Virus record (IMG/VR): IMGVR_UViG_3300030060_007423 | Span: 64,001-128,000 of that record | Source: a virus | DNA length: 64,000 nucleotides | Strand: one strand, 5' to 3' | In this document: piece after piece, positions 13,477 to 49,479 of the stretch | Layout of the letters: every line of letters begins with the position of its first letter | Numbering within the stretch: the first letter of the stretch is position 1 | Notes under the pieces: generated by a model | The model's database searches: none | Told to the model about the DNA's origin: nothing | The model's input: the letters and a program-made list of their open reading frames with translations, nothing else | Program-made: the position numbers and the translations under genes

Positions 13477-13487
13477 GGAAAACATTT

Positions 13488-14129: not shown

Positions 14130-14131
14130 AA

Positions 14132-31893: not shown

Positions 31894-31952
31894 TACCAGT
31901 GAATTGATATTTATTTTAGTATAATAATATATGTTTTTAGGAGAGCAAAAAA

Positions 31953-32558
31953 ATGAATATCACAAGAGAACAGGTAGAGGCGGCTGTAAAAGCAAAGGGC
32001 TACAGATGGTTTGAGAATGGCGACTATAATGTCAACATTGTTGGAATCAGAAATTCTGAAACGGGTAACACAGTTACAAACAAATTTGATGACAAAATAA
32101 CAATATCATTCAAGTGCGATGGCGAATGGGAATTTTATTGTTATGATTGTACAACAGACCCAGGAACACATTGGGTAGAAAACATAATGAGAAAGGAAGG
32201 AGTTGCTGTATTAAAACCAGGGCAATATCCAGGTTCTCATAAAATCAGATTACATCAGGGAAGATATGAAGCATTGGGACAAACAAAAAATGTCACAGTG
32301 TATCGTGATAATAATCGTGATGACAAGTATGACTTAGATGACAATAATACACAAACAGGATTATTTGGAATCAACATTCACAGAGCTACAAAATGGGGTG
32401 GAAGAAAATCTAGCCAAGTAGATAAGTGGAGTGCAGGTTGCCAAGTAATTGCTGCTAATGATGATTGGCATGAATTTTTAGATATATGTAGAGTTGCACG
32501 TGACAAATGGAGCAATAGTTTTACATATACGTTAATTGAATCAAAAGACATAGTATAA
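31953..32558 (+). CDS. putative endolysin / L,D-transpeptidase-like Cys protease
   Basis: GINIH…WSAGCQV matches the YkuD-type H…S.GC catalytic pattern; AGGAG RBS. Confidence 0.6.
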   Translation: MNITREQVEAAVKAKGYRWFENGDYNVNIVGIRNSETGNTVTNKFDDKITISFKCDGEWEFYCYDCTTDPGTHWVENIMRKEGVAVLKPGQYPGSHKIRLHQGRYEALGQTKNVTVYRDNNRDDKYDLDDNNTQTGLFGINIHRATKWGGRKSSQVDKWSAGCQVIAANDDWHEFLDICRVARDKWSNSFTYTLIESKDIV

Positions 32559-32905
32559 TGAAATTACAAGATATACTTACAGAAAAGAACAAGGGACTCT
32601 GGGCAAACATCCATGCTAAAAAGAAGCGTGGTGAAAAGTCAGACCCTCGTTCTAAATCTTACCAAGACGCAAAAAAAGCTGGTGAGAAACTTGCAAAACA
32701 AAATGAAGAACTAACAGAAGCTGAAATGGACAAACAATTTGCAAAAGAATTTGAGTCCAACTGTAAAGCATTTATTAATCATATAAAACACGAACTAAAA
32801 ACAGCTGAAAGTTCTGATGCGATGGTACTAAGAAAAATGCTAAAAGCTTTACTAGTAGTTTCAGGCTATCCAAAATTAATGTCTAGAATCGTAGGAGAGA
32901 AATAA
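32558..32905 (+). CDS. putative internal virion protein (N-terminal MKLQDILTE)
   Basis: Shared N-terminal motif; GLWANIHAK module; internal ELTE. Confidence 0.6.
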   Translation: MKLQDILTEKNKGLWANIHAKKKRGEKSDPRSKSYQDAKKAGEKLAKQNEELTEAEMDKQFAKEFESNCKAFINHIKHELKTAESSDAMVLRKMLKALLVVSGYPKLMSRIVGEK

Positions 32906-33144
32906 TGAAATTAAAAACAATAATATCACAAAAAGCTTTTGCACCTGAAAAGGAAACAAATGAAGCGGCACCTAAAATGAGAAAGAACCCAGAGGCTGAA
33001 AAAATTGACAAAATATATAAGGCAGCATACCTTCTAAAAAAAGGTGGTTCCGGTAATAGATACGCAAAAGAATTTGAAAAGGCTAAAAAGAAAGCACTTA
33101 AAGCTTTAGCAGAAATGCACCAATACGCTAAGATAGGGGTATAA
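32905..33144 (+). CDS. putative internal virion protein (MKLKTIISQ)
   Basis: Variant N-terminal motif; Lys-rich. Confidence 0.55.
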   Translation: MKLKTIISQKAFAPEKETNEAAPKMRKNPEAEKIDKIYKAAYLLKKGGSGNRYAKEFEKAKKKALKALAEMHQYAKIGV

Positions 33145-33146
33145 TC

Positions 33147-33623
33147 ATGAAATTGAAAAACATTATAAATGAAATTTCTACAAAGGCTGGACTTAATGAT
33201 GTAATCAAAGGAAGAACAACTTCTATTGAAGGAATTAAAATGTCAAAAGAAATGGCAGAAAATTTAATGTATTGGATTACAACTTCTCCTTATGGTAGAA
33301 AATATGGTAAGCATATCTTAAAGGGTAGAATTGCTTCATTGATTGGACCAGCTAATGCAATGGGATTTGGTGATAGACTTAAAGGAAAATTAAAAGGCGA
33401 ATGGAAAGCTATTGTTGCAAAGCATGGACCTAAGAGAGAATCTGTTAATGAAAGATTAAGTCTTGCAAATGCAAAAAGAATGGATGGACTTCATAATATG
33501 AAAGCAATGAAACAAGTCATTATTGGTGCAAAGGTAATACAGAAAGATTTGTATGATGAAGGATTTGAAAATGATGAAATTCTAGAATTTTTAATGGATA
33601 GAATTAGACGAGCTGCATTTTAA
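33147..33623 (+). CDS. putative internal virion protein (MKLKNIINE; internal ESVNE)
   Basis: Shared motifs. Confidence 0.6.
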   Translation: MKLKNIINEISTKAGLNDVIKGRTTSIEGIKMSKEMAENLMYWITTSPYGRKYGKHILKGRIASLIGPANAMGFGDRLKGKLKGEWKAIVAKHGPKRESVNERLSLANAKRMDGLHNMKAMKQVIIGAKVIQKDLYDEGFENDEILEFLMDRIRRAAF

Positions 33624-34012
33624 TGGATAAGTATATCTACAGGGCAAAATTAGATAGGGTAGTTGATGGTGATACTATTGATGCTCTTATCGATGTAGGT
33701 TTTGATATATGGGTTAAGAAAAGAATCAGATATATGGGAATTGATACTTGGGAAAGTAGAACTCGAGACCTGGATGAAAAGAAAAAAGGATTAGCTGCAA
33801 AGGCTAGAAATAAACAACTATTAGATGAAGTATCCAGTAAGCCTGGATACTTTAGATTAAAATCTTACGGAGTTGGTAAATATGGTAGAGTACTTGGTGA
33901 GATTTTTATAATGGACAGTGAAGGTAAGCAATATAATATAAATGAACAACTTAAAGCCGAGGGACATGCTTACGAGTATCACGGCGGCAAAAAACAAGTA
34001 TTCAAAGGATAA
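33623..34012 (+). CDS. thermonuclease (SNase) family protein
   Basis: VVDGDTID, R..GIDT.E, GKYGR.LG, EGHA. Confidence 0.9.
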   Translation: MDKYIYRAKLDRVVDGDTIDALIDVGFDIWVKKRIRYMGIDTWESRTRDLDEKKKGLAAKARNKQLLDEVSSKPGYFRLKSYGVGKYGRVLGEIFIMDSEGKQYNINEQLKAEGHAYEYHGGKKQVFKG

Positions 34013-34017
34013 AAGAA

Positions 34018-34332
34018 ATGGCAAAAAAAGTAAAAAAGGCTGTAAAGAAAACAGCAAAGAAAGTTGTAAAAAAAGTTTTAGATTCAACAACTATCGATGA
34101 AAAAATTATTGAAAACATAGACAAGAATAGAAGTCTATATAATTTAATCTTATGTTACATTAAATGTTATGGTGGCTATTTATTGGCAGTAGGTGCTGGA
34201 TGTACTTATGGTGCAAACATTTGGTGGGGATTAGCATTAACCGTTGGTGCAGGTGCATGGGCATATTGGCAAGTATGTAAATGTAAAGCTTGTAAAACAA
34301 ATATGCCAGGTGGTACTTGTTGTAATGAATAA
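34018..34332 (+). CDS. membrane protein with basic N-terminus and Cys-rich C-terminus
   Basis: KKxxKK repeats, two hydrophobic segments, CKCKAC…CC. Confidence 0.6.
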   Translation: MAKKVKKAVKKTAKKVVKKVLDSTTIDEKIIENIDKNRSLYNLILCYIKCYGGYLLAVGAGCTYGANIWWGLALTVGAGAWAYWQVCKCKACKTNMPGGTCCNE

Positions 34333-34564
34333 GTTAGTATTAATATTTATGATACTGACATTGAGTTCATGTATGGTATCACAGAAAGCATACGATACAA
34401 AATGTGCAGAATATGATGCACAAATAGTTGAGCTTGAAAGTAAAGCTCGTGGCATGGAAATGAAAGAACAACTTTTAAGAGAAAAATTGCATAATGTAAT
34501 TACAGAACTTAAAAAATTAAAAGATCCAAACAACCAGCCACCACACGACCCAGCAAACGACTAG
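34325..34564 (+). CDS. coiled-coil lipoprotein
   Basis: MNKLVLIFMILTLSS-C lipobox (ATG 34325), then coiled coil. Confidence 0.65.
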   Translation: MNKLVLIFMILTLSSCMVSQKAYDTKCAEYDAQIVELESKARGMEMKEQLLREKLHNVITELKKLKDPNNQPPHDPAND

Positions 34565-34573
34565 GAGAAAAAA

Positions 34574-34879
34574 ATGATTAAATTGTCTAAAATATTAAAT
34601 GAAGATGGCTATAAAGGATTATTAGATGATATTCCTGGAGCAAAAGTATACACTGCATCTGGTGGTGGAACTGCTGAAACACAATCAACCAAAAAGATTT
34701 GGGATGATGGAACACCTGTTCTTAAGTATATTGCAAGAGCACCTAAAAAGACAATTAAGTTACCTAGAAAGTTTAAGGTTGTTGATGATACAAAATATGG
34801 CTGGTGGTACTTTCAGATTGGAAATGTTTGGCATGGAATTGACAAAGACAAATACGGAACACCACCGTTTGAATATTAA
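34574..34879 (+). CDS. putative internal virion protein (MIKLSKILNE)
   Basis: Shared N-terminal motif; AGGAG RBS. Confidence 0.6.
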   Translation: MIKLSKILNEDGYKGLLDDIPGAKVYTASGGGTAETQSTKKIWDDGTPVLKYIARAPKKTIKLPRKFKVVDDTKYGWWYFQIGNVWHGIDKDKYGTPPFEY

Positions 34880-34895
34880 ATAAAGGAGAATTGTT

Positions 34896-35045
34896 ATGAT
34901 AAATTGGATAAACGGCTTTGATGCCGGAAATAAAAAAGAAAAGTACTACATTGAATTTAGAGTAGGTACTTTTACAGTATTAGAAATGAAGTGGGAATCT
35001 AAGAAATTTAGATTTATGATATTTAATTTGGGATTTGAAATATGA
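34896..35045 (+). CDS. small hypothetical protein (49 aa)
   Basis: AAGGAG RBS, MINWINGF…GFEI; ATGA overlap with next gene. Confidence 0.65.
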   Translation: MINWINGFDAGNKKEKYYIEFRVGTFTVLEMKWESKKFRFMIFNLGFEI

Positions 35046-38000
35046 AAAAGTTATTATTTTTATTGCTATTATTACCATCGGTTATATTAGCACAAAACAG
35101 TTGGATAAACATACAATTATTAACAGATGACTATCCAGAAGAAACTTCTTGGACTATAACACCTCCAGGTGGTTCTCCAATTATTGCTCAGTCTGATTCT
35201 ATAATGACAGACTTAACATTATATGATACAACAATTGCTGTAGGTGGAACTATAGTTGTTAATTTATACGACGAGTATGGAGATGGTTTAGGTGGATTTA
35301 ATGGTTCACCAGAAGGTTGGTTTTTAATTCAAAATGATTGTCAAGATACATTATTATATGTGGCAGGAGATTTTGGAGCTTTATATACTGACACTTTAAC
35401 AATAGCACCTTGTGCACCTCCAGTATCTGGATGTACTGATGTAAATGCTACCAATTATGATTCACTCGCCACAGCCGATGATGGTTCTTGTACCTATCCT
35501 CCATGTGGCGGTTTAGTTTTTAGTAATGCATATCAACAATGTCAACCAAATGGTCAAGCATTGGCTATATTTGAATGGGAAACAGATGCATACAATCCAA
35601 CTTGTGAAGTAGTCAAAGTATGGATTAGCAATGAAAACGGTTTAGGACCATTACAGTTTCCAGGTTCATGGCCATCAGGAGGACCTCATAACTTTGCATT
35701 TAATGCAGGTCCAGGACAAATGCCACCAAATTGGTCAGAAGAGTTTTATTGTCAAGTAGAATTTGCAGATGGTTCATTATCAGATACTATTGCATACACA
35801 CCAACACCATGTATTCCAGGTTGTACTGACCCAACACAAATAGCATATAATCCTTGGGCTACAATAGATGATGGTTCATGTAGTGGAACAACTTGTGACA
35901 CAAATACACAATATCAAATATCCATTTCAATAACATTAGATAATTGGCCAGGTGAAACAAGCTGGCAATTTGTTGATGGTTTAGGTAATACATTTGACTA
36001 TCCAGTAGGAACATATGATTTTAATGATATAGGACAAACTTATACTTACGCATTCTGTGTAGACCAAAATGCAGCTTTTGAAATGATTATCAATGATGAT
36101 TATGGTGATGGTATGGCTGGTTCAACATCAGGTGGAACAATGGATGGTGAAATTTTTATATATGATTGTTCAGGAGATACTATTTGGTATATGGACAATC
36201 CTGGTTTTGGAACTGTATTATATTCAGGTCCACAAACAGCAACACCTTGTCCTACTATTCCAGTAATAGACGGATGTACAGATGATGATTATGTTGAGTT
36301 TAATCCTCAAGCAAATAATGATGATGGTAGTTGCTTAACATTACATACTTACGGTTGTACAGACCCAGCAGCGTTTAACTATGATCCTTCAGCAACTATG
36401 ATGGACTTAACACCAGATTGTAATTACGAACTATGGATTGGAGATGCTGGCGGTGATGGTTGGGGTAATTCATTTATAGGTGTATATCAAAATGGTATTA
36501 ATCTTGGAACATATACAATGGGACCAGGTAATTATCAACAAACCTTTAATGTAATTTTAGACCCAGGAGTTCCAGTAGAAGTATTTTATTTTGAAGTAGG
36601 TGGACCACAACAACCACCAGAAGAGGTACAATTTCAAACTTGGCATAATTCATTTAAGTTAACAAATGCAGATGGTGTTGAACTAATGTATGAAGGACAG
36701 AATCCATTTGCAAATAATGGTCAAGGAGCACTTCAAGGATTTGGAGCACCATTCTTTACAAAATATGTAGCAGTTCCATTTTGTGGAAATACTTGTATTC
36801 CAACAGTATTGGGTTGTATGGACTCATTATCTGTAAACTTTGACCCAAATGCAAATGTAGATGATGGTTCTTGTATTCCTGAAATTTTAGGATGTACTAA
36901 CCTTTTAGCATTTAACTATGACCCAAATGCAACTTTGGATGATGGTTCATGTATTCCAGTTGTAAATGGATGTATGGATTCATTGGCATATAATTTTAAT
37001 CCTTTAGCTAATACACCAGATGGAAGTTGTGTATTTTTAGGATGTACAGATAATTTAGCTTGTAATTATGATGCAATTGCAAATGTAGATAATGGAGGTT
37101 GTACTTACCCAGCTCAATATTACGATTGTTATGGAGCATGTATAAATGATACTGATGGTGATGGTGTTTGTGATGAGTTGGAAGTTTTAGGATGTACGGA
37201 TCCATTATCAACTAATTTTAATCCTGCAGCTACAGATGACGATGGTACTTGTATACCAATTATTTATGGATGTACTGACCCAACAATGTATAACTATAGT
37301 GTAACTGCTAATACAGATGATGGTAGTTGTGTACCGTACATTTATGGATGTACTGACCCAACAATGTTTAATTATGATGTAACTGCAAACACTGACGATG
37401 GTACATGTATACCTATTGTTATTGGTTGTATGGATGTAACTATGTGGAACTATGATCCTTTAGCTAACACATCATCAGGAAATTGTATTCCATTCATATA
37501 TGGTTGTATGGACCCAACGATGTTTAATTATGATCCGTTGGCGAATACAGATAATGGTACATGTGAGCCATTTGTTTATGGATGTACTGACCAAACTGCA
37601 CTTAACTTTAACCCATTAGCAAATACTTTAGATAATAGTTGTTGTTATATTGCAGGATGTACTGACGCATCAGCACTTAATTATGATCCAGACGCATGTT
37701 ATGATGACAATTCATGTATAACAATTGTAACAGGTTGTACTGATGTAACGGCTTACAACTATAACCCAGCTGCAAATGTTTCAGATTCAAGTTGTTTATA
37801 TGATGCAGGTTGTTATGGTGGACCAGGAGTTCCATATTGGTTGAATGATGGATGTTATGCTTGGGTAATTGATGTTGATGATTATTGTTGTACAAATGAT
37901 TGGGATGTAAACTGTCAATCAATGTATGATTATTGTGAACAAGGTTGGCCAGTGTCAACTGAAGAATTATCTGGTTCAGGTACAATATTGGTATATCCAA

Positions 38001-38191
38001 ACCCAACGCCAGATGTATTAAATATTGATACACGATTAGATGTTGAAGTTGAATTATATGATATGATGGGAAGAAAACTTATCGTAACAACTGATAAGAG
38101 AATAGACATATCTAAATTTGATTCTGGAGTATACAACATGATAATTATATACGACAACCTTAGATTTAGTAAAAGGGTAATAAAACAGTAA
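35042..38191 (+). CDS. large secreted Cys/Asp-rich repeat protein with T9SS type A C-terminal sorting domain
   Basis: Sec signal (…VILA|Q), 16 GC(T/M)D…N(Y/F)…DDG.C repeats, C-terminal VYPNP…LYDMMG…ID…SGVY…K. Confidence 0.88.
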   Translation: MKKLLFLLLLLPSVILAQNSWINIQLLTDDYPEETSWTITPPGGSPIIAQSDSIMTDLTLYDTTIAVGGTIVVNLYDEYGDGLGGFNGSPEGWFLIQNDCQDTLLYVAGDFGALYTDTLTIAPCAPPVSGCTDVNATNYDSLATADDGSCTYPPCGGLVFSNAYQQCQPNGQALAIFEWETDAYNPTCEVVKVWISNENGLGPLQFPGSWPSGGPHNFAFNAGPGQMPPNWSEEFYCQVEFADGSLSDTIAYTPTPCIPGCTDPTQIAYNPWATIDDGSCSGTTCDTNTQYQISISITLDNWPGETSWQFVDGLGNTFDYPVGTYDFNDIGQTYTYAFCVDQNAAFEMIINDDYGDGMAGSTSGGTMDGEIFIYDCSGDTIWYMDNPGFGTVLYSGPQTATPCPTIPVIDGCTDDDYVEFNPQANNDDGSCLTLHTYGCTDPAAFNYDPSATMMDLTPDCNYELWIGDAGGDGWGNSFIGVYQNGINLGTYTMGPGNYQQTFNVILDPGVPVEVFYFEVGGPQQPPEEVQFQTWHNSFKLTNADGVELMYEGQNPFANNGQGALQGFGAPFFTKYVAVPFCGNTCIPTVLGCMDSLSVNFDPNANVDDGSCIPEILGCTNLLAFNYDPNATLDDGSCIPVVNGCMDSLAYNFNPLANTPDGSCVFLGCTDNLACNYDAIANVDNGGCTYPAQYYDCYGACINDTDGDGVCDELEVLGCTDPLSTNFNPAATDDDGTCIPIIYGCTDPTMYNYSVTANTDDGSCVPYIYGCTDPTMFNYDVTANTDDGTCIPIVIGCMDVTMWNYDPLANTSSGNCIPFIYGCMDPTMFNYDPLANTDNGTCEPFVYGCTDQTALNFNPLANTLDNSCCYIAGCTDASALNYDPDACYDDNSCITIVTGCTDVTAYNYNPAANVSDSSCLYDAGCYGGPGVPYWLNDGCYAWVIDVDDYCCTNDWDVNCQSMYDYCEQGWPVSTEELSGSGTILVYPNPTPDVLNIDTRLDVEVELYDMMGRKLIVTTDKRIDISKFDSGVYNMIIIYDNLRFSKRVIKQ
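36812..37797 (+). repeat. tandem ~26-aa (78-bp) GCTD repeats, 12 units
   Basis: Repeated ggatgtactgaccc…gatggt..ttgt units within the 35042 gene. Confidence 0.85.
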
Positions 38192-38601
38192 TGAAAAAAT
38201 TTATTAATTGGCATAAGCTTACTATAGGTAAATTACAAAATATCTTGAGAATAGATTCATATCAAACTTTATGGATAAGTTTTGTTAAGGGATTATTTAT
38301 AGGGTATTTACTATGTATGCTTACAAGTTGTGCACTAACATATGAAGCACCACATAAATGCGAATTAATGCTAAGAGGTGAACCTTGCTTAACCAGCCAT
38401 GTATGCTGTAATCCACCTCAGACATATCATTATGAAACATATCCAAATTACTATAATTGGTGGTGGCTAACACGACCAAAGCATACTACTAATTATGTAA
38501 TTGTAAAACCAAATAATAAACCTACATATAATGGTCATAGACCAAATTGGAATAATAAGCCTAATAATAAGCCTAATAAAAATAGGAGTAAAAGAAAATG
38601 A
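38191..38601 (+). CDS. membrane/lipoprotein with Asn-Lys-Pro low-complexity tail
   Basis: TM followed by LTSC; NNKP repeats. Confidence 0.6.
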   Translation: MKKFINWHKLTIGKLQNILRIDSYQTLWISFVKGLFIGYLLCMLTSCALTYEAPHKCELMLRGEPCLTSHVCCNPPQTYHYETYPNYYNWWWLTRPKHTTNYVIVKPNNKPTYNGHRPNWNNKPNNKPNKNRSKRK

Positions 38602-39677
38602 AAAAGTTACTAATCATACTATGTATGTTACCAGCATTTATGTTTGGTCAAGAAGTTAAAGACAACAAGTTTGAAAAAATACAGAAAAGTCTTAAAAAGA
38701 CATTTAAGTTTGCAACATTTTATGGAGCTGTGAACGGTGGTAATTCAGTATCAGATGTAGATGTATTTAGTGTTACAAACGGATTACAAACAAATACAAT
38801 CCAAACTCCTTTTGATTATTCACTTACAGCTGGTGTAAGAAAGATTGCTAGGTTAGGCTACGAAAATAGAGCTAACACATTTTATAATGGTACCGAGAAT
38901 AGTTTTAGTGATGCTGCAACAATTGGTAGGGTTAGTGGCTTTGAATTTCTATTTGAGGCTGACTACAGAAGACAACAAGGTCAAAACTTTTTAGACCAAA
39001 ACCACTTTTTAAGATATGTTGCAGATAGATATATTGTTAAAGTAGAGTATTTACAAGATGGTTTTGCTGATATACAATATTTTGAAGCTTCACAGAGATT
39101 TAGACAAAAAGTAGGAAACAAATTATCATTTAATATTGGTGCAGTACAAAGATTGTCTGAACCTTATGGATATGACCCATTAGAGGAATGGATGTTATCA
39201 AATGGTAATTTACATTATACATCCCTTGCTATTCAAGAAGGATATACAGTTCAATTTGATGGTCAAGGTGGTGAAACATATTATAACCCATCAGGACAAG
39301 TAGTTGCGGAAAATACACAAATATGGGAAGGTGTTGTTATACCTACTGTATTGTCAGATTATACAGAAAAGAAGAGAAATCAACTAGACCAAACATTCCA
39401 ATACTCAGTAGTTGTTGGTTTTGATTTCTATCATTTTACAAAAGAATTTTGGTTACATTCATGGGGTAATGTAATGCCATATCATTATGATGATGGTGGT
39501 GAATTTAGTTATCATGAATATAATGGTGGACAATGGGTAGACTATTCAGGTGGTCTTATATTTGGATATTATGTTATACCAAAAAAATTAGGGTTATTTG
39601 TTGAAGGAAAATACAATAAGTACTGGAATCGTAATTGGCATGATTTCAGCTTTGGACTTAACTACGTAATATTTTAG
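38598..39677 (+). CDS. putative outer-membrane beta-barrel protein
   Basis: Signal peptide (…FMFG|Q), alternating aromatic strands, C-terminal FGLNYVIF beta-signal. Confidence 0.7.
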   Translation: MKKLLIILCMLPAFMFGQEVKDNKFEKIQKSLKKTFKFATFYGAVNGGNSVSDVDVFSVTNGLQTNTIQTPFDYSLTAGVRKIARLGYENRANTFYNGTENSFSDAATIGRVSGFEFLFEADYRRQQGQNFLDQNHFLRYVADRYIVKVEYLQDGFADIQYFEASQRFRQKVGNKLSFNIGAVQRLSEPYGYDPLEEWMLSNGNLHYTSLAIQEGYTVQFDGQGGETYYNPSGQVVAENTQIWEGVVIPTVLSDYTEKKRNQLDQTFQYSVVVGFDFYHFTKEFWLHSWGNVMPYHYDDGGEFSYHEYNGGQWVDYSGGLIFGYYVIPKKLGLFVEGKYNKYWNRNWHDFSFGLNYVIF

Positions 39678-39687
39678 GAGTTTACAA

Positions 39688-39978
39688 ATGGCAAAGGAAT
39701 TAAATGAAGATTCAGGTTTTAAGGTTAGTATAAAAACTTTAATAGCAATTGGATTCGCAATGGCAACAATCATAGGGATGTGGTTTGCTCTTCAAGCAGA
39801 TATTGAAGAGGCAAAAGAATTACCAGTTCCACCACCACCTGATGTTACCAGGATGGAATTTGATATGAAAGATAAGAACATACGTCTAACTATCGAGAAT
39901 ACTCAAGAAGATGTTGAAGAAATAAAAGAAGATTTGGATAGGATTGAAGAAAAAATTGACGAATTAAACAGGAGATAA
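39688..39978 (+). CDS. single-TM coiled-coil protein
   Basis: TM, PPPP linker, acidic coiled coil. Confidence 0.7.
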   Translation: MAKELNEDSGFKVSIKTLIAIGFAMATIIGMWFALQADIEEAKELPVPPPPDVTRMEFDMKDKNIRLTIENTQEDVEEIKEDLDRIEEKIDELNRR

Positions 39979-39981
39979 GTT

Positions 39982-40335
39982 ATGAAATTTATTAAATTGA
40001 TTATAGTTATGTTTATGATGTTACCACTTATTAGTTTTGGCCAAACGTTAAAGCTTGGTAGTGGTGTACAAGTAGTTCACTTCAACGCAAATTGGAATTC
40101 AGCAAATGATGTTAAGTGGGTTAAAGGTTTAAGTGACTGTAAAATAAAATCATGTGATATAGCTACAGATACTAAAGCACAAAATAAATGGGAAATAGTA
40201 GTTGTACCAACAATTATAATTTTTAATGATGGAGAAGAGGTTAAAAGATTTCAAGCAGATATATCTTTTGCCATGAAGGCAACCCAAGAGGAGGTTCAGG
40301 AAAAAATAGATGAAATATTAATGGAGGGATTCTAA
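39982..40335 (+). CDS. exported thioredoxin-fold protein lacking CxxC
   Basis: Signal peptide; VHFNANWN in place of WCxxC; VPTIIIF.DGEEV.R. Confidence 0.75.
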   Translation: MKFIKLIIVMFMMLPLISFGQTLKLGSGVQVVHFNANWNSANDVKWVKGLSDCKIKSCDIATDTKAQNKWEIVVVPTIIIFNDGEEVKRFQADISFAMKATQEEVQEKIDEILMEGF

Positions 40336-40556
40336 TGTGGAAATTATTCAAAGACGAAAATGATATAAACGAAAAAGCTATTGTTGGCTTTGCATCTTTT
40401 ATCTTAATGGTATTATTTGCAATTTGTGATTTAATTACTGGATGGTGTGGTATGGAACTTGTAATAAATGAAGTAATATATAATTCATTTGTTATTGTAA
40501 CATTAGGTAGCTTTGGTATAAGTTCAATAGAAAAAATCAAAGGCAATGGAAAGTAA
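40335..40556 (+). CDS. small two-TM membrane protein (holin-like)
   Basis: Two TM segments, charged termini. Confidence 0.6.
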   Translation: MWKLFKDENDINEKAIVGFASFILMVLFAICDLITGWCGMELVINEVIYNSFVIVTLGSFGISSIEKIKGNGK

Positions 40557-40942
40557 TGATTAAATTAACAGATATACTATTTGAGTATGTAACAAAGAGT
40601 GACATGCGTAGTATTGAAAACTATGCAGATAAACTTTTTGCAGCAGCAGGTATTGATGTTGATTTTACACGTCACTTTAGACAACGTGTTAATGATGAAA
40701 GAAATATAAAACCAATTACAGCAGCAGAACTAATAGGTGTATTTAAGAGGACATGGAAGAAGTACGGAAAAAAACTACCAGAATTAACGGCAAATGCTGA
40801 AGCTGTAATAAAAGACATGAGAAGTGATATAAATATGCCATTTGTATTTACACAAGATAAAGGTGGCGAATTGGATTTAATTGCTAAAACCATAATGAGA
40901 AAGAAAAACTTTCGAACAACAAATAAAGTATTGGATATATAA
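40556..40942 (+). CDS. putative internal virion protein (MIKLTDILFE), possible RNase-toxin-like domain
   Basis: Shared N-terminal motif; FTRHF..R…KTIMRK. Confidence 0.55.
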   Translation: MIKLTDILFEYVTKSDMRSIENYADKLFAAAGIDVDFTRHFRQRVNDERNIKPITAAELIGVFKRTWKKYGKKLPELTANAEAVIKDMRSDINMPFVFTQDKGGELDLIAKTIMRKKNFRTTNKVLDI

Positions 40943-40944
40943 TT

Positions 40945-41418
40945 ATGACAAAATTTAATGACGCAAAATGGAGAAGAGAAATATTAGAAGGTAAGCACCA
41001 ATTAAACGAGTTTACTGAATATGGTTTTGACCCTAGAGAAATGCACCAGAGAAATTCTGAAAACCCACAAAAAGTTGTAAGTGCATTAAAGAAAGCAGGC
41101 TTTTCAAAAATAAACCTTGGTAAAGCTCAAAAACAAGTAAGAAGTTTGGATATGAATAAAACTCGAGGCGTTATGTTTGTTCATGTACAATATCACGTTA
41201 TTGAAGGAAAGGACGGAAAGAAATACTTTATACATCAATCACAATATCATCATAGAGATTTTGGAACAGGTGGTGTAAATCTAACAGCAGTGTATGTAGA
41301 GGAGAGACCTAACTATCCAGATAAAGGTGGTGAAAAAGAAATAGGAAGAGCAGTTTTTCTTAAAGATGATTTCTTAGACGGTTTGAAAAAAGTTAATGTA
41401 TTGAAACGGGCTTCATGA
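40945..41418 (+). CDS. hypothetical protein (…EILE…QLNE leader)
   Basis: 157 aa ORF in the array. Confidence 0.6.
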   Translation: MTKFNDAKWRREILEGKHQLNEFTEYGFDPREMHQRNSENPQKVVSALKKAGFSKINLGKAQKQVRSLDMNKTRGVMFVHVQYHVIEGKDGKKYFIHQSQYHHRDFGTGGVNLTAVYVEERPNYPDKGGEKEIGRAVFLKDDFLDGLKKVNVLKRAS

Positions 41419-42116
41419 TTAAACTTGTTGACATATTAACAGAAGGTGTATATGACCCAGGTATATTTAAGGCTGTGTTCACAGCTGGTGGACCTGGTAG
41501 TGGAAAGTCATATGTTGCATCTACATTATTTGGTATGCCAGAAAAAATGCCATTTGTTTCTGCAAAGGGACTAAAATCTGTTAATAGTGACAAGTACTTT
41601 GAAACATATTTGAAAATGAGTGGACTATCTCAAGATATTGCAAAGATGACACCAGCAGAATATGAACAAGCTATGGAAATAAGAAAGAAGAGTAAAAAAG
41701 TTAGAGATGCTGCTCTTAAGAATTATATAAATGGAAGACTTGGTTTGCTAATTGATGGAACTGGAAAAGATTATTCAAAAATAGCAAAACAAAAAAGTAG
41801 ATTGGAATCTGTTGGCTATGATTGTTTCATGGTGTTTGTAAATACAGATTTAGAAGTTGCACTTAAAAGAAACCAAAAACGTGAAAGAAAAGTACCAACT
41901 GATGTTGTAAAGAAAGGTTGGTCAGATGTACAAAGTAATGTTGGAAAGTTTCAAAGTTTATTTGGTGCAAGCAATATGTTAATTGTAGATAATAGTGAAT
42001 ATAAAGACTTTGGAAAAATTGTTAAGCGTGGTGCAAATTCATTTATTTCTAGACCTTTACAAAATCCAAAAGCAAAGGCATGGATTAAAAAAGAATTGGA
42101 GTTGAGAAAATCATGA
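41415..42116 (+). CDS. P-loop kinase, zeta-toxin/AAA_33-like, with MIKLVDILTE leader
   Basis: GGPGSGKS, VNSD, IDGTG, A..RN..R.R. Confidence 0.8.
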   Translation: MIKLVDILTEGVYDPGIFKAVFTAGGPGSGKSYVASTLFGMPEKMPFVSAKGLKSVNSDKYFETYLKMSGLSQDIAKMTPAEYEQAMEIRKKSKKVRDAALKNYINGRLGLLIDGTGKDYSKIAKQKSRLESVGYDCFMVFVNTDLEVALKRNQKRERKVPTDVVKKGWSDVQSNVGKFQSLFGASNMLIVDNSEYKDFGKIVKRGANSFISRPLQNPKAKAWIKKELELRKS

Positions 42117-43456
42117 GTAAATTATTAAATGAAATTAAAAATATGATACACCAAGAATTGAATGAAATCAGAAAAGGTGATTATGTTGATTCAATGGGTG
42201 AAGTTGGATTAGTTAATAAGGTTAAAGGTCAAGTGGCATATGTTAAATTTCCATCAAAGCCAGGAAGCTTTCATCCTATATTGGCCTCATCTCTAAAAAA
42301 AGCTGGTAAACATAAAGGTAAAGACTTATATTCAGAAGGCAAATTAAATGAAAATGTTAGAATGCCAGCAAAGGATTGGATAAACATTAGATTAGTACAA
42401 ATGCTACTTAAATCTGGTGACTTAAAGAAATACAAATCAGTATTACAAAAAGCTCAAGGACAAGATGGCAAAAAAGCTATTGACATGATATATAAAAAAA
42501 TCGTATTACCTTTACATAAAGCTATGAAAATAGACCCAACTAAAGTAAAAGATTTACGAAGTTATATAGCTAAGTATGGTGAAGATAAATTTACAGATGC
42601 TTGGAATAAACTTTATAAACAGGGTGTAAGTGGAAGTTATCTCTATGCACTTGCAGGAACTATATTTCAAGGTATGGAAAGATATGATTATGTTTCAAAA
42701 CCACTTGGCTTAACAGAAGCATCTACACCATCATTACCTTCTGAAGTAAAAAGATACATGGAAAAGTTTTTATCAGCAATTAAAGGTGCAAATCTAAATC
42801 GCCAAAAACAAAAAGTTTTATTGGCTGGATTGATAGAGGCATTAGGAATAGACTCTGGTGAATTGATGATGTTAGTAAACAAAATCAAAAAAGGACTTAA
42901 GACTGAAGATAAAGAAGAACAAGATGAAGTTGGATTGCAAATGCCATTCGTAATGGTTTCTTCTGTAGATGAAGGCAAATTAAATGAAAGTATGATTGGT
43001 ATAAAAACTAAAGCAAACTTCAAACCTTTACAACTTAAAGGAGCATTGGAAAGAGCTGGAATTAAAGGTTTTCAGATGAATAGATTATCTGTGACTCTAA
43101 CAGCATTAAAATTAGATAAAAAATACTTTAAGAAAGCTAAAGAGATTGTTGATAAGTTAGGACTTTCTGTTATGATGGCAAAAGAATCTGTAAATGAAGC
43201 TACTAATCTTTGGAAACACTTCGATGCAAAGATGAAATTACAAGATACTATTATGGACCTTGAATATGATATGAAAATGATAACTAAAGATATAGCTCAA
43301 CTTCATAAAGATATGGAACAAGAGGCAGAACCAGAAGGCGGTCCTAAAGCTACTAGATATGGTAGAGACATCGAAAAGAAAGAAAAAGAATACAAAAAGA
43401 AAAAAGCTGAGTTCAAAAAACTTATGGCTAAATTGGATAGAATGGAACAATACTAA
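42113..43456 (+). CDS. multi-module putative internal virion polyprotein
   Basis: Modules separated by EGKLNE (twice), GLTE and ESVNE. Confidence 0.6.
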   Translation: MSKLLNEIKNMIHQELNEIRKGDYVDSMGEVGLVNKVKGQVAYVKFPSKPGSFHPILASSLKKAGKHKGKDLYSEGKLNENVRMPAKDWINIRLVQMLLKSGDLKKYKSVLQKAQGQDGKKAIDMIYKKIVLPLHKAMKIDPTKVKDLRSYIAKYGEDKFTDAWNKLYKQGVSGSYLYALAGTIFQGMERYDYVSKPLGLTEASTPSLPSEVKRYMEKFLSAIKGANLNRQKQKVLLAGLIEALGIDSGELMMLVNKIKKGLKTEDKEEQDEVGLQMPFVMVSSVDEGKLNESMIGIKTKANFKPLQLKGALERAGIKGFQMNRLSVTLTALKLDKKYFKKAKEIVDKLGLSVMMAKESVNEATNLWKHFDAKMKLQDTIMDLEYDMKMITKDIAQLHKDMEQEAEPEGGPKATRYGRDIEKKEKEYKKKKAEFKKLMAKLDRMEQY

Positions 43457-44682
43457 TGATTAGTTTGGTTGACATAGTAAACCTTAATAAATTGGTGTAT
43501 TCAGAAGACATCAAAAAGAAACATTTGGATGTAATAAATAATCCATCTCCTCTTTTTGAAAAATTTGATTTAACACAATGGATGGGAACTCCTCCTCCAC
43601 AAAATGGTAGTAGAACAACATTTAAGGAAATACTTCAGATAGATAGTATTCCAATGGATAGTGAATTTATTCATAGTGGTGATAAAACTATAAAATATTT
43701 TGAAAATTGGTTTATTGAAAATACATGTGGATGTAATCATACATTTCCAAAAGCATATATAAATAAAATAAAAGATGCAACAAGACCTTTAATTCTAAAG
43801 TTAAAATATCATTATAATCGTCCAAGACCTATACAGGTTGCAGAAACACATGGATTAAAGTTTCATGAAGAACCATTGGAGAGTGCAAAAACTCCAGCAT
43901 ATCCAAGTGGACATGCAACACAAGGAATGTTAATAGCTATGGTTCTATCTGAAATGTACCCAGAACATACTGGTGAATTAATGAATTTAGGTACTGATGT
44001 TGCAAACTCAAGAATGGTTGCAAAGGTACATTATCCATCTGACACAAAATTTGGATGTGATTTAGCAAAAGCATTATTTAATCATATTAAACAAAATTCT
44101 AATATGAAAGAAAATATTGTAGAAAATAAAATTGTCAAAACCAAAAAACTTACCCTTAAGAATTTATTATCAGAAAATTATGATTTAGACAATCATCCAA
44201 AAAAGAAATGGATAAAGCAACAACTATCTTCAATAGATAAAAAAATAATGGAGTATTTGTTCAAACAGTACAAAGCAGTTTACTCGGCAGAAGGAATGGA
44301 CTTATCAGCGTTTAGTGCAAGTGAATTACAAAGTAGTTACCAAGTAGTAATGTTGATTGATGTTGACAAAGATCCTATGCCAGATGCATTTATATTTACA
44401 AGAGGTAATCGTGTAAAGTTATTAGCAACTGATGGACAAGGACCAAGTAAAAGTGCTGTAGTTAAAAAAGTTGTTAACATGGTAAAATCAGAAGGATACA
44501 ACTTAGAAGCTAGTAAAAAAATGAATGACATTATGATAGGTAAAGGCGCACCTGTTATAACTGATAAAAATAAAATTGAAAAAATGGTAGGACCAAAATT
44601 TATAAAACACCTTGACAATGGATATTATGAAAGAAAACTTAAAAAAGGTGGTAATGTTGTAAAAAGAATGTATGGGAAATAG
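43456..44682 (+). CDS. PAP2/haloperoxidase-family phosphatase fused to a second domain
   Basis: K…..RPRP, YPSGH, SR…..HYPSD; internal LKNLLSE. Confidence 0.82.
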   Translation: MISLVDIVNLNKLVYSEDIKKKHLDVINNPSPLFEKFDLTQWMGTPPPQNGSRTTFKEILQIDSIPMDSEFIHSGDKTIKYFENWFIENTCGCNHTFPKAYINKIKDATRPLILKLKYHYNRPRPIQVAETHGLKFHEEPLESAKTPAYPSGHATQGMLIAMVLSEMYPEHTGELMNLGTDVANSRMVAKVHYPSDTKFGCDLAKALFNHIKQNSNMKENIVENKIVKTKKLTLKNLLSENYDLDNHPKKKWIKQQLSSIDKKIMEYLFKQYKAVYSAEGMDLSAFSASELQSSYQVVMLIDVDKDPMPDAFIFTRGNRVKLLATDGQGPSKSAVVKKVVNMVKSEGYNLEASKKMNDIMIGKGAPVITDKNKIEKMVGPKFIKHLDNGYYERKLKKGGNVVKRMYGK

Positions 44683-44684
44683 AT

Positions 44685-45962: not shown

Positions 45963-46684
45963 TGGTTTTAAGAATGACATTTAGTGGTAGCCAGCAAATC
46001 ATTGAAGAAGTCTGTGAACATTGTGGTGAAAAGATTGAAGATGTACAACACAGTGAAATAATAGTACAGAAAGATACTGACAAGCGAAGATTGAGAATGC
46101 AGGATAGGGATGGACAGAGAAGAGAACTATTTAAGAAGGCAGATAAAATTGCAGGTATAAAGGCATCAGCATCTGCACAAGGAATGTATGATAGAGCTAT
46201 TGATGGAGATGACTTAAAGTATAGTGTACGTGCAGAAAGAATGTGTAGTTCAAGTGATGGCACAACTACTCAATTTTGTTATAGGGTTACAAATCCAAAA
46301 TTTTTAGCAAAGACTAAGGCAGATGGAACAAGTCTTAGTGCTAGTTTTTTTGATCCAAATGAACCATTAATAAACGAAACCGGTTCAAAGGTTGGATTAG
46401 ATAGGCGAGGAAATGTTGTTAGATTAAAAGAGGAAACTAAAGAAGGTGGTAGTAGAAGACAAAAGGGAGCCTTTGGAGTTACTTGGTTTGCAAATTTAGA
46501 TGCTAGGCGACAAAAAACTGTGTTGGAACAATATCGTGGTTGTAGCTACATGTTAAGATTAGGTGCACAACAAGCAAGTGCTGAAGATGTCCCAGGATTT
46601 CAAAAAGGTGAAATGGGTGAAGGATTGGCAACATTTAGATCTTTAGAAGAATTTAAGTTAGCACACAGTAGATACTGTAGTTAA
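45962..46684 (+). CDS. hypothetical protein (N-terminal CEHC)
   Basis: 240 aa, TAATG-coupled. Confidence 0.65.
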   Translation: MVLRMTFSGSQQIIEEVCEHCGEKIEDVQHSEIIVQKDTDKRRLRMQDRDGQRRELFKKADKIAGIKASASAQGMYDRAIDGDDLKYSVRAERMCSSSDGTTTQFCYRVTNPKFLAKTKADGTSLSASFFDPNEPLINETGSKVGLDRRGNVVRLKEETKEGGSRRQKGAFGVTWFANLDARRQKTVLEQYRGCSYMLRLGAQQASAEDVPGFQKGEMGEGLATFRSLEEFKLAHSRYCS

Positions 46685-46696
46685 GAGGAAATAATT

Positions 46697-47029
46697 ATGG
46701 AAAAAATATTATATAGAAATGAAAATTTAAGACTTGAAATATACGAGACGGCTGAACCTATATTGTTTACTGAGGCTGAATATCAAGGTCGTAAAGTTAA
46801 ACTTAACAAGATAATGCAAGGTGATGCAAAAAAGTTTAAGGTATATGTTAAAAATCCAAAGGGAAATGTTGTTAAAGTAAACTTTGGACAAGGTGGTGAT
46901 GCTAAAGGTGGAACTATGCGTATAAGAAAAAATAACCCAAAGGCCCGTAAAAACTTTAGGGCTAGATTTAATTGTGATACACCAGGACCTAAACACAAAG
47001 CAAGGTACTGGGCATGTAGAACTTGGTAG
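46697..47029 (+). CDS. conserved phage protein (DUF6321-like)
   Basis: E-AEYQGRKVKL…KKFKVYV…VKVNFG…FRAR.NC…ARYW.C..W. Confidence 0.7.
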   Translation: MEKILYRNENLRLEIYETAEPILFTEAEYQGRKVKLNKIMQGDAKKFKVYVKNPKGNVVKVNFGQGGDAKGGTMRIRKNNPKARKNFRARFNCDTPGPKHKARYWACRTW

Positions 47030-47038
47030 GAAATTATT

Positions 47039-47734
47039 ATGATAAAACAAACATTAAAAATAATTGAAAGAATTGGTTCAACTACATGGTCTGGGTATAC
47101 AGAAAAAGGTCGCTCATTAGACAATACTGTAGGTGGACAGCCAGCTGGCAAATCTCTTAAGAGACGTGTTGCAGATAATACAGTACCTGACCATGATGGA
47201 AAATCTGCACCGTATGGTTCAGCATATAAAAAAGTAAAAGACTTAGATGAGATGAGTGCAACTGCCAAAAAACATGGTAAGTTTGGTCTTACAAATGTAC
47301 CATTTCCAACTGAAGAACCAAATGAGTTTGCATATTTAGATTTTGTAAAGTATGTTAAGAAAAATGAAAAGAAAATCATGAAAGCATTATCAAATGTTAG
47401 AGGTGAAAGAATGTTTAAGGCAATTGAATCTGTATGGTCTAACTGGGATGATAAAGCAAATAAAGGAGCTTTTTCAAATATTCGTGGTAATAAGTTTGGT
47501 AGAGCATTAGTCTTAATGTTAAGAAAAGACGATTTAGTTTTTCAAAATACTGGAAACAAAATAACTAATCTAAAAGAAAAATATAATATTAGAAAGCAAT
47601 CTTGTACACAATCTGATGGAGACAAAGGAAATACAGTTTTATATTATACAACTAAAAAGGGTAAAAAACGTAGTAATTGTCATACATCAAAAAAGAATGC
47701 AAAAGACCAGATTGCAGCAATAGAGGGACCATAA
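47039..47734 (+). CDS. multi-module putative internal virion protein (MIKQTLKIIE)
   Basis: HDGKSAPYGS module; LDE and LKE linkers. Confidence 0.55.
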   Translation: MIKQTLKIIERIGSTTWSGYTEKGRSLDNTVGGQPAGKSLKRRVADNTVPDHDGKSAPYGSAYKKVKDLDEMSATAKKHGKFGLTNVPFPTEEPNEFAYLDFVKYVKKNEKKIMKALSNVRGERMFKAIESVWSNWDDKANKGAFSNIRGNKFGRALVLMLRKDDLVFQNTGNKITNLKEKYNIRKQSCTQSDGDKGNTVLYYTTKKGKKRSNCHTSKKNAKDQIAAIEGP

Positions 47735-47736
47735 TC

Positions 47737-48273
47737 ATGATAAAGAAAACATTACAACTTTTTGAAGATAAAAAATCATCCAGTGCAGATCCAAAAAAAT
47801 CACCAGAATATTACAAAGGACTTTCTGCAAAAGAAAAGAAAGAAAGATCAAATGTAATTGCACGTAGAAGTAAAATGGACGATGATGACCCAGAAGCATA
47901 TGCAAAATTTAGAAGTGATGCTGGTGAAAAAACTAAACCATCAAAGCATACTAATAAATTCAAACAAATGTTTGGTGAAGAAAAGTGGAATACTCTTAAA
48001 GAAGTATATGAAATGGCAAAAGGCCTAAATGAAATGAGTGCTGCTGTAAAAAAAGCATTAAAGAAAAAAGCTGATAAATCTGGAATGCCTTTAGGTGTAC
48101 TAAAGCAAGTATTTAACAGAGGAATGGCTGCATGGAAAACTGGACATAGACCTGGTGCAAGTCAACAACAGTGGGGATATGCAAGAGTAAATAGTTTTGC
48201 AACAAAAAGTCCAGGTACTTGGGGTAAAGCAGATAAAGATTTAGCTAAAAAGGTTAGAGGAAAAAAGAAATAG
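47737..48273 (+). CDS. DUF5824-like protein with MIKKTLQLFE leader
   Basis: TKPSKHT.KF, L.KKA..SG…L.QVF.RG.AAW.TGHRPG…WG.ARVNSF; ATG 47737. Confidence 0.7.
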   Translation: MIKKTLQLFEDKKSSSADPKKSPEYYKGLSAKEKKERSNVIARRSKMDDDDPEAYAKFRSDAGEKTKPSKHTNKFKQMFGEEKWNTLKEVYEMAKGLNEMSAAVKKALKKKADKSGMPLGVLKQVFNRGMAAWKTGHRPGASQQQWGYARVNSFATKSPGTWGKADKDLAKKVRGKKK

Positions 48274-48965
48274 TGATTAGCCTTAAACAAATATTAGAAG
48301 GTAGCAGTAATACTTCAACATACACAGCCGATAGTGGTGAACCTGATACAGGATTTTTACCAGGTGGAAAGGCAAGACGTCTTGGTATGAGAAAGGGTAA
48401 ACCTGAACCTTGGTTTGAAAATGGAGGATACACACAGGTTGATTTTCCTAAAGGTGATTACATATATGGAAAAAGAACACGAGCCGAATTTAGTGTAAAG
48501 AAACGAAACGTTAGAATGGTTGTAAAATTAAAAGAATCAAATAAACCATTGAACGAAAGATTTATTGTTGAATCATCAAAATCTGAAATTATGGATGTAG
48601 TCAATACAGTATATCCATATATAGTAAAAGATTTAGGTGGAAGAGCCGTAAAGGTTGAAGTACACAACAATATTTACAAAAGACTTGGTGCTGTTGGTGA
48701 AGAAGATTTAATGGTTGATAACAATCCTTATGGTGAATATGATTGGGATAAAAGAAAGATATATCTATACGCATCAGCAATAAAGAATACTGAACAAATA
48801 ATTAGGTCATTACTACATGAACATACCCATACATTACAGAGTAGAAAAAAGTTCAAAGCTGGATATGATAGTGGAAAATATGATTACAAAACTCATCCAT
48901 ATGAAAAAGCTGCAACACAAGCTGAAAGAAATTGGAAAAAATATTTGAAGTACCTAAATGATTAA
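48273..48965 (+). CDS. HExxH zinc metallopeptidase-domain protein with MISLKQILE leader
   Basis: LLHEHTH..Q…Y..HPYE..A; GTG start. Confidence 0.72.
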   Translation: MISLKQILEGSSNTSTYTADSGEPDTGFLPGGKARRLGMRKGKPEPWFENGGYTQVDFPKGDYIYGKRTRAEFSVKKRNVRMVVKLKESNKPLNERFIVESSKSEIMDVVNTVYPYIVKDLGGRAVKVEVHNNIYKRLGAVGEEDLMVDNNPYGEYDWDKRKIYLYASAIKNTEQIIRSLLHEHTHTLQSRKKFKAGYDSGKYDYKTHPYEKAATQAERNWKKYLKYLND

Positions 48966-49479
48966 ACTAAAAGACATATTACATGAAGGTATTACTCTCA
49001 GTATATTTGACTTTGATGATACATTGGCAAAAACTGATAGTTGGATATATGTTATTAAAAATGGACGAGAAGTAAAAAGATTAGACCCGGCACAATTTGC
49101 AACTTATACTCCAAAGGTTGGTGAAACATTTGATTTTAAGGATTTTGATAAAAAACTAAAAAACCCTAAAATCATAAAGAAAAACGTTGATTTATTACGT
49201 AAACAACTAAGTAAAGGTGGCAGGAAAGTGACTATATTAACTGCCAGAAGACTTGGTGCACCCATAAATTCTTTTTTCAAAACTCTAGGTATTCAGCCAT
49301 ACATTGTACCATTAGGTGATGCAAATCCACAAAAGAAAGCAGATTATATAGAAAAGCAAATAAGAAAAGGAAAGTATAATCCTATATACTTTATGGATGA
49401 TAGTCCAAAGAATATCAGAGCAGTTGACTCACTAAAAAAGAAATATCCTAGAATCAAACTAATAACCAAGCTTGTATGA
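48958..49479 (+). CDS. HAD-superfamily phosphatase with MIKLKDILHE leader
   Basis: FDFDDTL, ILTAR, K, FMDDS..N. Confidence 0.82.
   Translation: MIKLKDILHEGITLSIFDFDDTLAKTDSWIYVIKNGREVKRLDPAQFATYTPKVGETFDFKDFDKKLKNPKIIKKNVDLLRKQLSKGGRKVTILTARRLGAPINSFFKTLGIQPYIVPLGDANPQKKADYIEKQIRKGKYNPIYFMDDSPKNIRAVDSLKKKYPRIKLITKLV

Follow-up and report, generated by a model that had tools for sequence, protein, structure and literature searches.

Why should some 13 neighbouring phage genes, whose products are otherwise unrelated, begin with almost the same short peptide? The question is raised by a 64,000-nucleotide stretch of viral DNA (the window), bases 64001-128000 of a single 170.8-kb virus contig (IMG/VR record IMGVR_UViG_3300030060_007423; CheckV completeness 80%) that has about 30% G+C and carries nearly every gene on one strand. 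An initial annotation of the window had described these genes as an array and had proposed that the shared peptide (the leader) is a capsid targeting sequence (CTS) like that of T4, cut at (L/I)xE by a gp21-type prohead protease. Here we name genes by their start position in the window and mark positions in the whole contig as "genome". The shared start peptide between 32558 and 49479 is genuine, and we put at roughly 80% the probability that it is a T4-type CTS, that it is cut by an S77 protease, and that the attached cargo is loaded into the head. Every indirect test that we ran supports the proposal.

Every start in the original list exists and reads as given, and with the leaders excluded (beyond residue 12) the tagged proteins are dissimilar, the best blastp E value being 0.25. 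The description of about 13 unrelated genes with one start peptide therefore holds for the starts and the bodies, but only nine leaders are canonical, ending in hydrophobic-hydrophobic-x-E or hydrophobic-x-E at residue 9 or 10. The other four are weaker: 32905 ends in Gln, 43456 is without Glu, 42113 has only 7 residues, and 40945 has a 15-residue leader of another class. Overall, the leaders range from 7 to 15 residues with the consensus MIKLxDILxE. All-versus-all comparison of N termini gave 9-10 pairs with at least six identities in nine positions, versus none at each of four internal control offsets, and this unbiased comparison returned the same set of genes as the original list. Six proteins have a hydrophobic-hydrophobic-x-E motif whose Glu is exactly residue 10, compared with 0.75 per position in the background (Poisson tail about 1e-4). 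In a complete relative, G002, the motif ends there in nine proteins against 1.27, and in Flavobacterium phage vB_FspM_immuto (NC_055915; hereafter immuto) the peak lies at residue 12 (8 proteins versus 1.68), a second leader type, MKKSxLxxIIKE, being dominant in that phage, which also has one leader reading MIKLIDLLTE.

The leader is also concentrated, as the initial annotation had said: the starts are of the M(I)KL type in 12 genes (every one of the 13 except 40945), and all 12 fall within 27 of the 218 open reading frames (ORFs) (hypergeometric p about 1e-12). Its caution that MLKLINE at 27616 is only a partial look-alike was well placed, since 27616 is a sugar-pathway gene and the resemblance is a chance one. 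The Leu and Ile codons vary between leader copies, and conservation is thus at the level of the peptide. Outside the window, tag-like N termini occur beside the head genes, at genome 11019 (MKKKTLQKLVKE), at genome 17633 when read from the second Met (MSLIKKFDTLVE), and at genome 20027 when read from an internal Met (MKLKKLYE), the last matching phrog_22379, as 32558 does. A test for Sec, lipoprotein and type IX secretion system (T9SS) signal peptides found a transmembrane-like segment in none of the tagged proteins; true signal peptides occur on the untagged genes 35042, 38598, and 39982.

The phage has a T4-type head module, which lies outside the window. Family profiles matched a large terminase, a gp20-type portal (PF07230, Portal_T4, E 3e-74), a gp21-type prohead protease (PF03420, Peptidase_S77, E 8.8e-29; match to structure 5JBL, E 2.7e-18), and a gp23-type major capsid protein (PF07068, E 2e-78), whose closest cultured relatives are immuto, Microcystis phage Mel-JY01, and Rhodothermus phage RM378. 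The protease that had been sought elsewhere in the genome is therefore present, at genome 19364-20026, and its catalytic His (GELDHP) and Ser (GISSRG) align with those of T4 gp21. Of the tag-bearing records, seven have a completeness of 79% or more, and Peptidase_S77 was found in each of these; the records lacking it are only fragments, estimated to be 2-41% complete. A T9SS sorting domain on a 1049-aa protein inside the array indicates that the host is probably a member of the Bacteroidota. By megablast, the array has no match in cultured phages. Adjoining the head module, at genome 7681-10128, is a gene for an 815-aa cytidyltransferase-like protein with a weak match to phrog_395.

The specificity of this protease looks conserved relative to T4 when the sequences of likely maturation sites are compared. 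The N-terminal regions of T4 gp23 and gp24 align with LIDE, ending at Glu61 and followed by N, in the present phage, LVTE followed by A in G002, and IVSE followed by A in immuto; the T4 cut sites themselves we take to be FLTE followed by A in gp23 and LLRE followed by S in gp24, with a gp24 propeptide of 10 residues. The gp23 propeptide has 65 residues (PMC9026906). The four proteins of the genome that are densest in [LI]xE (38-44 per 1000 aa, against a median of 10) are all encoded by genes situated between those for the portal and the capsid protein, at genome 16804-22272; they have 291, 176, 183, and 353 aa and match no family. One of them, at genome 21211-22272, is a candidate acidic scaffold with an isoelectric point (pI) of 4.05, T4 gp22 having 59.5 such sites per 1000 aa and a pI of 4.58. 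Family searches found no sequence homology between the head-module proteins and gp22, gp67, or gp68, and the four proteins are probably a prohead core and scaffold set analogous to these. Together, the aligned maturation sites and the [LI]xE-dense head proteins suggest that the I-L-x-E at the end of the leader is the same kind of site.

Leader exchange on conserved cargo is the strongest comparative result, and the alignments point to the same conclusion in two families. In the kinase family of 41415, MIKLVDILTE precedes GVYDPGIFKA in the present phage, MIPFILKE precedes GLYDPGIFKA in Pelagibacter phage HTVC008M, and MKTFAELQE precedes GVYDPNIFKA in Methylophilales phage Melnitz; a more distant homologue in coliphage phT4A begins with MKSFKQFTESTLTE followed by A, which is close to T4 IPI (MKTFKEFTSTTTPVSTITE followed by A). 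Among 120 close homologues of the kinase, leader positions 1-4, 6-8, and 10 are kept, and positions 5 and 9 vary freely. The best 120 homologues of 40556 share one conserved body, and the junction always follows a Glu. Of these 120, five carry MIKLTDILxE, about 35 carry short T4-type leaders (such as MKTFKQFTE, MKTFSQYIFE, MKKFKEYISE, and MITFKQFTE), and 50 carry an MI[ST]FKEY start with a basic module of about 70 residues that ends in SIRE followed by D. The present leader and T4-type leaders thus replace one another on the same cargo. In an AlphaFold2 model of the 40556 family, residues 1-9 are predicted to lie outside the fold, with a predicted local distance difference test score (pLDDT) below 50; a usable model came from one of five runs (pLDDT 74).

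Two properties of the tagged bodies bear on what would become of them inside a head. First, all 13 have a pI of 9.25-10.1, versus 17% of other ORFs (Mann-Whitney p 1.4e-7), and across metagenomes 48% of the 123 tagged proteins listed exceed pI 9, versus about 16% of all ORFs in related genomes; this basic charge fits staying with the DNA. Second, the bodies avoid the double-hydrophobic form of the cut motif. [LI][LI]xE occurs 0.93 times per 1000 aa in tagged bodies versus 2.3-2.4 in untagged neighbours (observed/expected, 0.62 and 1.37, respectively), and the Asp version of the motif is in excess in the tagged set (1.37, versus 0.98 in the untagged). The contrast between Glu and Asp is significant by Fisher's test (p 4e-5; with each family represented once, the median is 0.012), the total Glu and Asp content being similar in the two sets. 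This avoidance suggests selection to survive the protease. The bodies of T4 IPI-III contain no [LI]xE, versus about four expected, and five [LI]xD, and have pI values of 9.6, 9.7, and 7.9.

A back-translated MIKLxDILxE served as the pattern for searches of larger collections. In IMG/VR, the leader pattern was found on at least 120 contigs, with at least 141 matches, and in 118 of the 141 matches listed the leader forms the first start codon of an ORF. The tagged proteins include at least 123 distinct sequences, which fall into at least 67 families after removal of the leader. Other genes are shared with the present phage in 111 of the 120 viral loci listed, among them in many cases a terminase, portal, protease, or capsid gene no more than 15 kb away. 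Prokaryote genomes (596 Gb, bacterial and archaeal) gave only 89 leader matches, of which 22 start an ORF of at least 50 aa. Many of these 22 are on short, low-GC contigs of metagenome-assembled or single-amplified genomes and precede the same cargo families, and such matches are therefore probably binned phage DNA. The leader is restricted to phages and to the starts of ORFs. A Prochlorococcus single-cell contig carries two tagged ORFs, neither of which matched any cultured phage. Across metagenomes the cargo families include DUF5872, Zeta/AAA_33 kinases, DUF6934, LRR, DUF5824, NUDIX, RimK-type ATP-grasp, and NT5C, together with wall-degrading domains (tail lysozyme, M23 peptidase, and the cell-wall hydrolase Hydrolase_2), as expected of virion-borne proteins.

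These data suggest the following course of events, in which core binding, cleavage, head retention, ejection, and the role of the cargo in the host are steps that we infer. The leader would bind the very acidic scaffold core during prohead assembly, and the attached protein would be enclosed as the gp23-type shell closes. The gp21/S77 protease would then cut after the final Glu of the leader, in the context Ile/Leu-Leu/Ile-x-Glu, and the basic mature protein, once freed, would stay in the head with the DNA and probably leave with it at the next infection. By analogy with T4 Alt and IPI, a part in host takeover or counter-defence is a reasonable guess for the ejected cargo.

Several observations weigh against this scheme. 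The cut is often followed by Ile or Val, while in the T4 sites compared it is followed by Ala or Ser; 32905 and 43456 are without the Glu, and the leader of 40945 belongs to a different class. Depletion of the double-hydrophobic motif is only moderately significant when each family is represented once, and [LI]xE alone is not depleted in tagged bodies (0.98 of expectation). Cargo proteins of 400-450 aa would have to traverse the portal and tail. Neither a virion proteome nor any N-terminal sequence was found in the literature for this phage, immuto, or the Slopekvirus homologue of the kinase: there is no virion proteomics of relatives or of the Slopekvirus homologue in PMC13119998, PMC5219037, or PMC6412083, and no immuto proteomics paper was found. 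The codons of the leader are biased at two positions, codon 6 being GAC in 67% (18% in the bodies) and codon 7 being ATA in 96% (46% in the bodies) of the 123 IMG/VR ORFs (41430-41435 and 48973-48978 are examples in the window), and a purely protein-level signal does not explain this bias. It is possible that the bias comes from avoidance of a promoter-like word, GATATTTAT, or from recombination through the leader DNA. Expression timing gives no help either. Across the genome, 29 gene starts, among them that of the gene just upstream of the array, are preceded at a distance of 5-40 nt by a promoter-like word, ATATTTAT(A) (window examples are at 267, 947, 3733, 8873, 31443, 31907, 49945, 53796, 54340, and 62516); most copies of the form GATATTTAT precede structural genes, and one, at 31907, lies immediately in front of the array; several small genes have a longer form, TAGTTATATTTATATATAAATAA, ahead of them. 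Because such words precede structural and non-structural genes, they permit no inference about when the array is expressed.

The alternative that survives best shares the first step with the scheme above: the leader would target the prohead core, but the proteins would be assembly helpers or filler, degraded and expelled at maturation and not delivered. T4 gp67, gp68, and most of gp22 are degraded and expelled in this way. The 42113 protein, with its repeated internal EGKLNE, ELNE, and SVNE sites, would be fragmented, as this alternative predicts, and similar N termini occur on the core proteins of the head module; most tagged bodies, however, avoid the double-hydrophobic cut motif, many are recognisable enzymes, and all are basic, fitting retention with DNA. 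We regard wholesale expulsion of the tagged proteins as unlikely.

It is rather less probable that the leader is a handle for some other, cytoplasmic partner, such as the phage GroEL/GroES, a regulatory protease that reads it as a degron, or a modifying enzyme like those acting on ribosomally synthesised and post-translationally modified peptides (RiPPs). GroEL is encoded in this genome and accompanies the tag in four of five related records, but the co-occurrence is a lineage trait and cannot discriminate, and no chaperonin link was found for the phages with T4 and HTVC008M-type leaders. A RiPP-like radical-SAM/SPASM leader system was considered and rejected, since no radical-SAM gene (PF04055) occurs in this genome or in G002 and G003, the two relatives that are 100% complete. 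Any such partner would leave unexplained the invariant final Glu, its identity with the capsid maturation motif, the exchange with T4-type CTSs, the basic charge, and the avoidance of the cut motif.

We give little credence to the idea that the conserved start is mainly a nucleic-acid feature, either a translation-initiation or repressor site on the mRNA or a DNA joint for recombination of cargo cassettes. The biases towards GAC at codon 6 and ATA at codon 7 would be accounted for, and T4-like phages do shuffle genes in hyperplastic regions (PMC4122927). Nevertheless, codons 2, 3, 4, 8, and 10 are of ordinary usage, with up to six codons used for Leu; it is at the protein level that positions 5 and 9 are free and the others fixed; and leaders of quite different DNA sequence stand at the same place on one cargo family. 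A role of the DNA could coexist with targeting. Finally, that the peptide is a chance product of an AT-rich genome (30% G+C), in which Ile, Lys, Leu, and Asn codons are favoured after ATG and many unrelated genes start with MKK or MIK, is refuted by the empty control offsets, the positional peak at residue 10, the clustering, and the conservation of the peptide in at least 120 other phage contigs, and is scarcely credible.

If the leader is indeed a targeting sequence, a wider and decidedly tentative proposal can be made, which we would not expect to hold in full. The leader would mark an open, horizontally exchanged library of injected proteins in marine T4-like phages, and its DNA (GAC-ATA) would also act as a recombination joint, allowing lineages that infect different bacterial phyla to exchange cargo and leader classes. 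This library would comprise at least 67 families, including Zeta-type kinases, phosphatases, NUDIX, ATP-grasp, LRR, and wall hydrolases.

The array itself, all of it on the + strand, begins with three small tagged genes. The first, 32558..32905, encodes a protein of 115 aa (MKLQDILTE; body pI 9.6) with a GLWANIHAKKKRG motif and matches to phrog_11180 and phrog_22379. It is followed by the weak member 32905..33144 (79 aa; MKLKTIISQ, with Gln at the cut position; pI 9.8) and by 33147..33623 (158 aa; MKLKNIINE; pI 9.9), which has no family match. At 33623-34012, inside the array, there is an untagged homologue of staphylococcal nuclease (PF00565, E 8e-7; pI 9.2). Staphylococcal nuclease is among the foreign proteins that have been loaded experimentally into T4 heads by means of the CTS. 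After another tagged gene, 34574..34879 (101 aa; MIKLSKILNE; pI 9.2), the array is interrupted at 35042-40556 by an untagged block with signal peptides, which encodes the 1049-aa protein (a C-terminal T9SS sorting domain and TSP3 repeats), a secreted 359-aa protein, and a 117-aa protein.

Beyond this block, 40556..40942 encodes a tagged protein of 128 aa (MIKLTDILFE), the family of which carries T4-type leaders in other phages. The suggestion that it is a possible RNase is unsupported, as the model of the family found no fold match in the PDB. The next gene, 40945..41418, is the weak member with the other class of leader (MTKFNDAKWRREILE followed by G; 157 aa; pI 9.5), which resembles an immuto leader class, MENNFDIHKWQAKFLKE. 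Immuto has a further common N terminus, MENFDLKKFLVENKLT, on five proteins, some of them near head genes (for example, at record positions 1803, 103806, 117631, 118632, and 125241), and 40945 resembles this class. The kinase gene, 41415..42116, encodes 233 aa (MIKLVDILTE followed by GVYDPGIFKA), and here the predicted P-loop kinase proved to be of the Zeta-toxin/AAA_33 type (PF06414, E 1.6e-11).

The two largest tagged proteins follow. Gene 42113..43456 encodes a basic 447-aa protein with the short leader MSKLLNE and with EGKLNE twice inside; the same 19-nt word, GAAGGCAAATTAAATGAAA, encodes EGKLNE at 42335-42353 and at 42971-42989. The protein also contains ELNE18 and SVNE362, so that cleavage by the head protease may yield several fragments. 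Its leader can be likened to that of T4 Alt, which starts MMELITE and has a 7-residue propeptide (PMC9026906). Gene 43456..44682 encodes the PAP2 phosphatase-domain protein that had been predicted (PF01569, E 2.5e-12), with 408 aa, a degenerate leader without Glu (MISLVDIVNL), a pI of 9.4, and no transmembrane-like segment, as in a soluble protein.

A further, probable cargo gene, 46697..47029, was absent from the original list. It encodes 110 aa (pI 10.3) with a longer leader, MEKILYRNENLRLE...PILFTE followed by A, and its match to phrog_7595 begins at residue 26. Homologues of this domain occur in 41 of the 120 tag-bearing loci listed, mostly behind MIKL- or MERLRKLIKE-type leaders. We had considered it as a conserved companion or adaptor and rejected this, since elsewhere it is the most frequent of the cargo modules and usually bears a tag itself.

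The array ends with four canonical members. Gene 47039..47734 encodes 231 aa (MIKQTLKIIE; pI 9.9), and 47737..48273, the ATG of which lies 3 nt after the preceding stop, encodes a DUF5824 protein of 178 aa (MIKKTLQLFE; pI 10.1), in agreement with the domain first proposed (PF19141, E 1.5e-20). In HTVC008M (12648-14438), DUF5824 forms the C-terminal portion of a larger protein, a "cytidyltransferase" of 596 aa with the start MKTLKELLRK; here it is a separate tagged gene. Gene 48273..48965 starts with GTG and encodes 230 aa (MISLKQILE); it had been called an HExxH peptidase, and the motif is present (HEHTH, at residue 182), but no peptidase family matched, only DUF3920 weakly. The last gene, 48958..49479, encodes a HAD-type phosphatase-like protein of 173 aa, in which MIKLKDILHE is followed by an FDFDDTL motif; matches to phrog_415 and DUF2608 confirm the assignment weakly. 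The leader of this protein precedes an otherwise complete N terminus, and an untagged HAD protein at 53831 starts directly with the catalytic strand (MIIYIDLDGVLADF). The other cargo in the window comprises several lysine-rich proteins without family matches.

If the proposal is true, a 10-residue leader ending in a protease motif, together with an S77 protease, would be a rule for recognising the capsid-borne proteins of uncultured T4-like phages. Such a rule would single out the phage proteins that act earliest after infection of a new cell, which are candidates for host takeover or counter-defence in the abundant marine phages that infect Bacteroidota, SAR11, and OM43. It would also supply a ready-made loading tag for engineering such phages, and it would imply that the T4 targeting system is old and widespread, the leader sequence having been replaced while the cargo was kept.

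The closest known system is that of T4 itself. Mullaney and Black reportedly described in 1996 the CTS on T4 internal proteins and its removal by gp21. The CTSs of IPI, IPII, IPIII, and Alt are removed by the gp21 prohead protease (PMC9026906, PMC3012670), which cuts after L/I-X-E, and the first ten residues of IPIII are enough for encapsidation; residues 4 and 7 serve chiefly for targeting and 8 and 10 for processing, and Asp at position 10 blocks cutting while targeting is kept (PMC9026906). In the T4 record, IPII and IPIII start with MKTYQEFIAE and IPI with MKTFKEFTSTTTPVSTITE. Aligned with the T4 CTS, MIKLKDILNE is hydrophobic at positions 4 and 7 and acidic at position 6, and it has Leu at position 8 and Glu at position 10. 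The (L/I)-x-Glu end is present in the nine canonical members, in 42113, and in 40945, but not in 32905 (Gln) or 43456 (Leu), and by analogy with the T4 Asp variant these two could be targeted yet uncut. In both systems, basic proteins that are not otherwise related to one another begin with a short leader, of 7-19 residues in T4 and 7-15 in the present phage; the catalytic residues of the S77 protease are identical, and the head includes a gp23 capsid, a gp20 portal, and an acidic scaffold rich in cut sites. In both, too, cargo bodies avoid the cut motif, and orthologues of the present cargo carry T4-type leaders in other T4-like phages. They differ in the leader (MIKLxDILxE versus MKTYQEFIAE), in the number of cargo genes (12-14 candidates in one block versus three or four), and in the cargo, which here is largely enzyme-sized (kinase, PAP2, HAD-like, and DUF5824), with at least 67 families tagged across metagenomes. 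The system described here, moreover, is known from sequence alone, in a phage whose host is probably a member of the Bacteroidota.

The CTS is all that the diverse internal proteins of T-even phages have in common (PMC3012670), and it may be a general route for loading proteins in T4-like phages (PMC9026906). As in those phages, variable cargo here stands behind a conserved leader, and cargo sets differ between related phages; that diversity, however, was found among close relatives with the T4 leader, whereas the present case involves another leader class, a distant marine lineage, and leader exchange. The giant phages SPN3US, phiKZ, and 201phi2-1 have head ejection proteins with propeptides that are cut by a gp21-related protease (PMC5694885, PMC7411985). 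In these phages too, many internal head proteins begin with propeptides ending in x-x-Glu, for which a targeting role has been proposed, but these propeptides are mostly longer than 100 residues and share no one common short peptide, whereas the present phage has a 10-residue consensus, as in T4. In encapsulins and in scaffold-mediated loading of HK97-fold shells, a short terminal peptide likewise suffices to load unrelated enzymes, but the encapsulin peptide is usually C-terminal, binds the shell protein, and stays uncleaved, with no protease or DNA involved. Searches of open-access papers for the leader strings found none except the T4 CTS in an engineering paper, and two cyanophage genomics reviews leave internal proteins and the CTS unmentioned. 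Overall, the mechanism is already textbook for T4, and what stands out here is a different leader, a larger set of cargo, and the swapping of leaders on conserved cargo.

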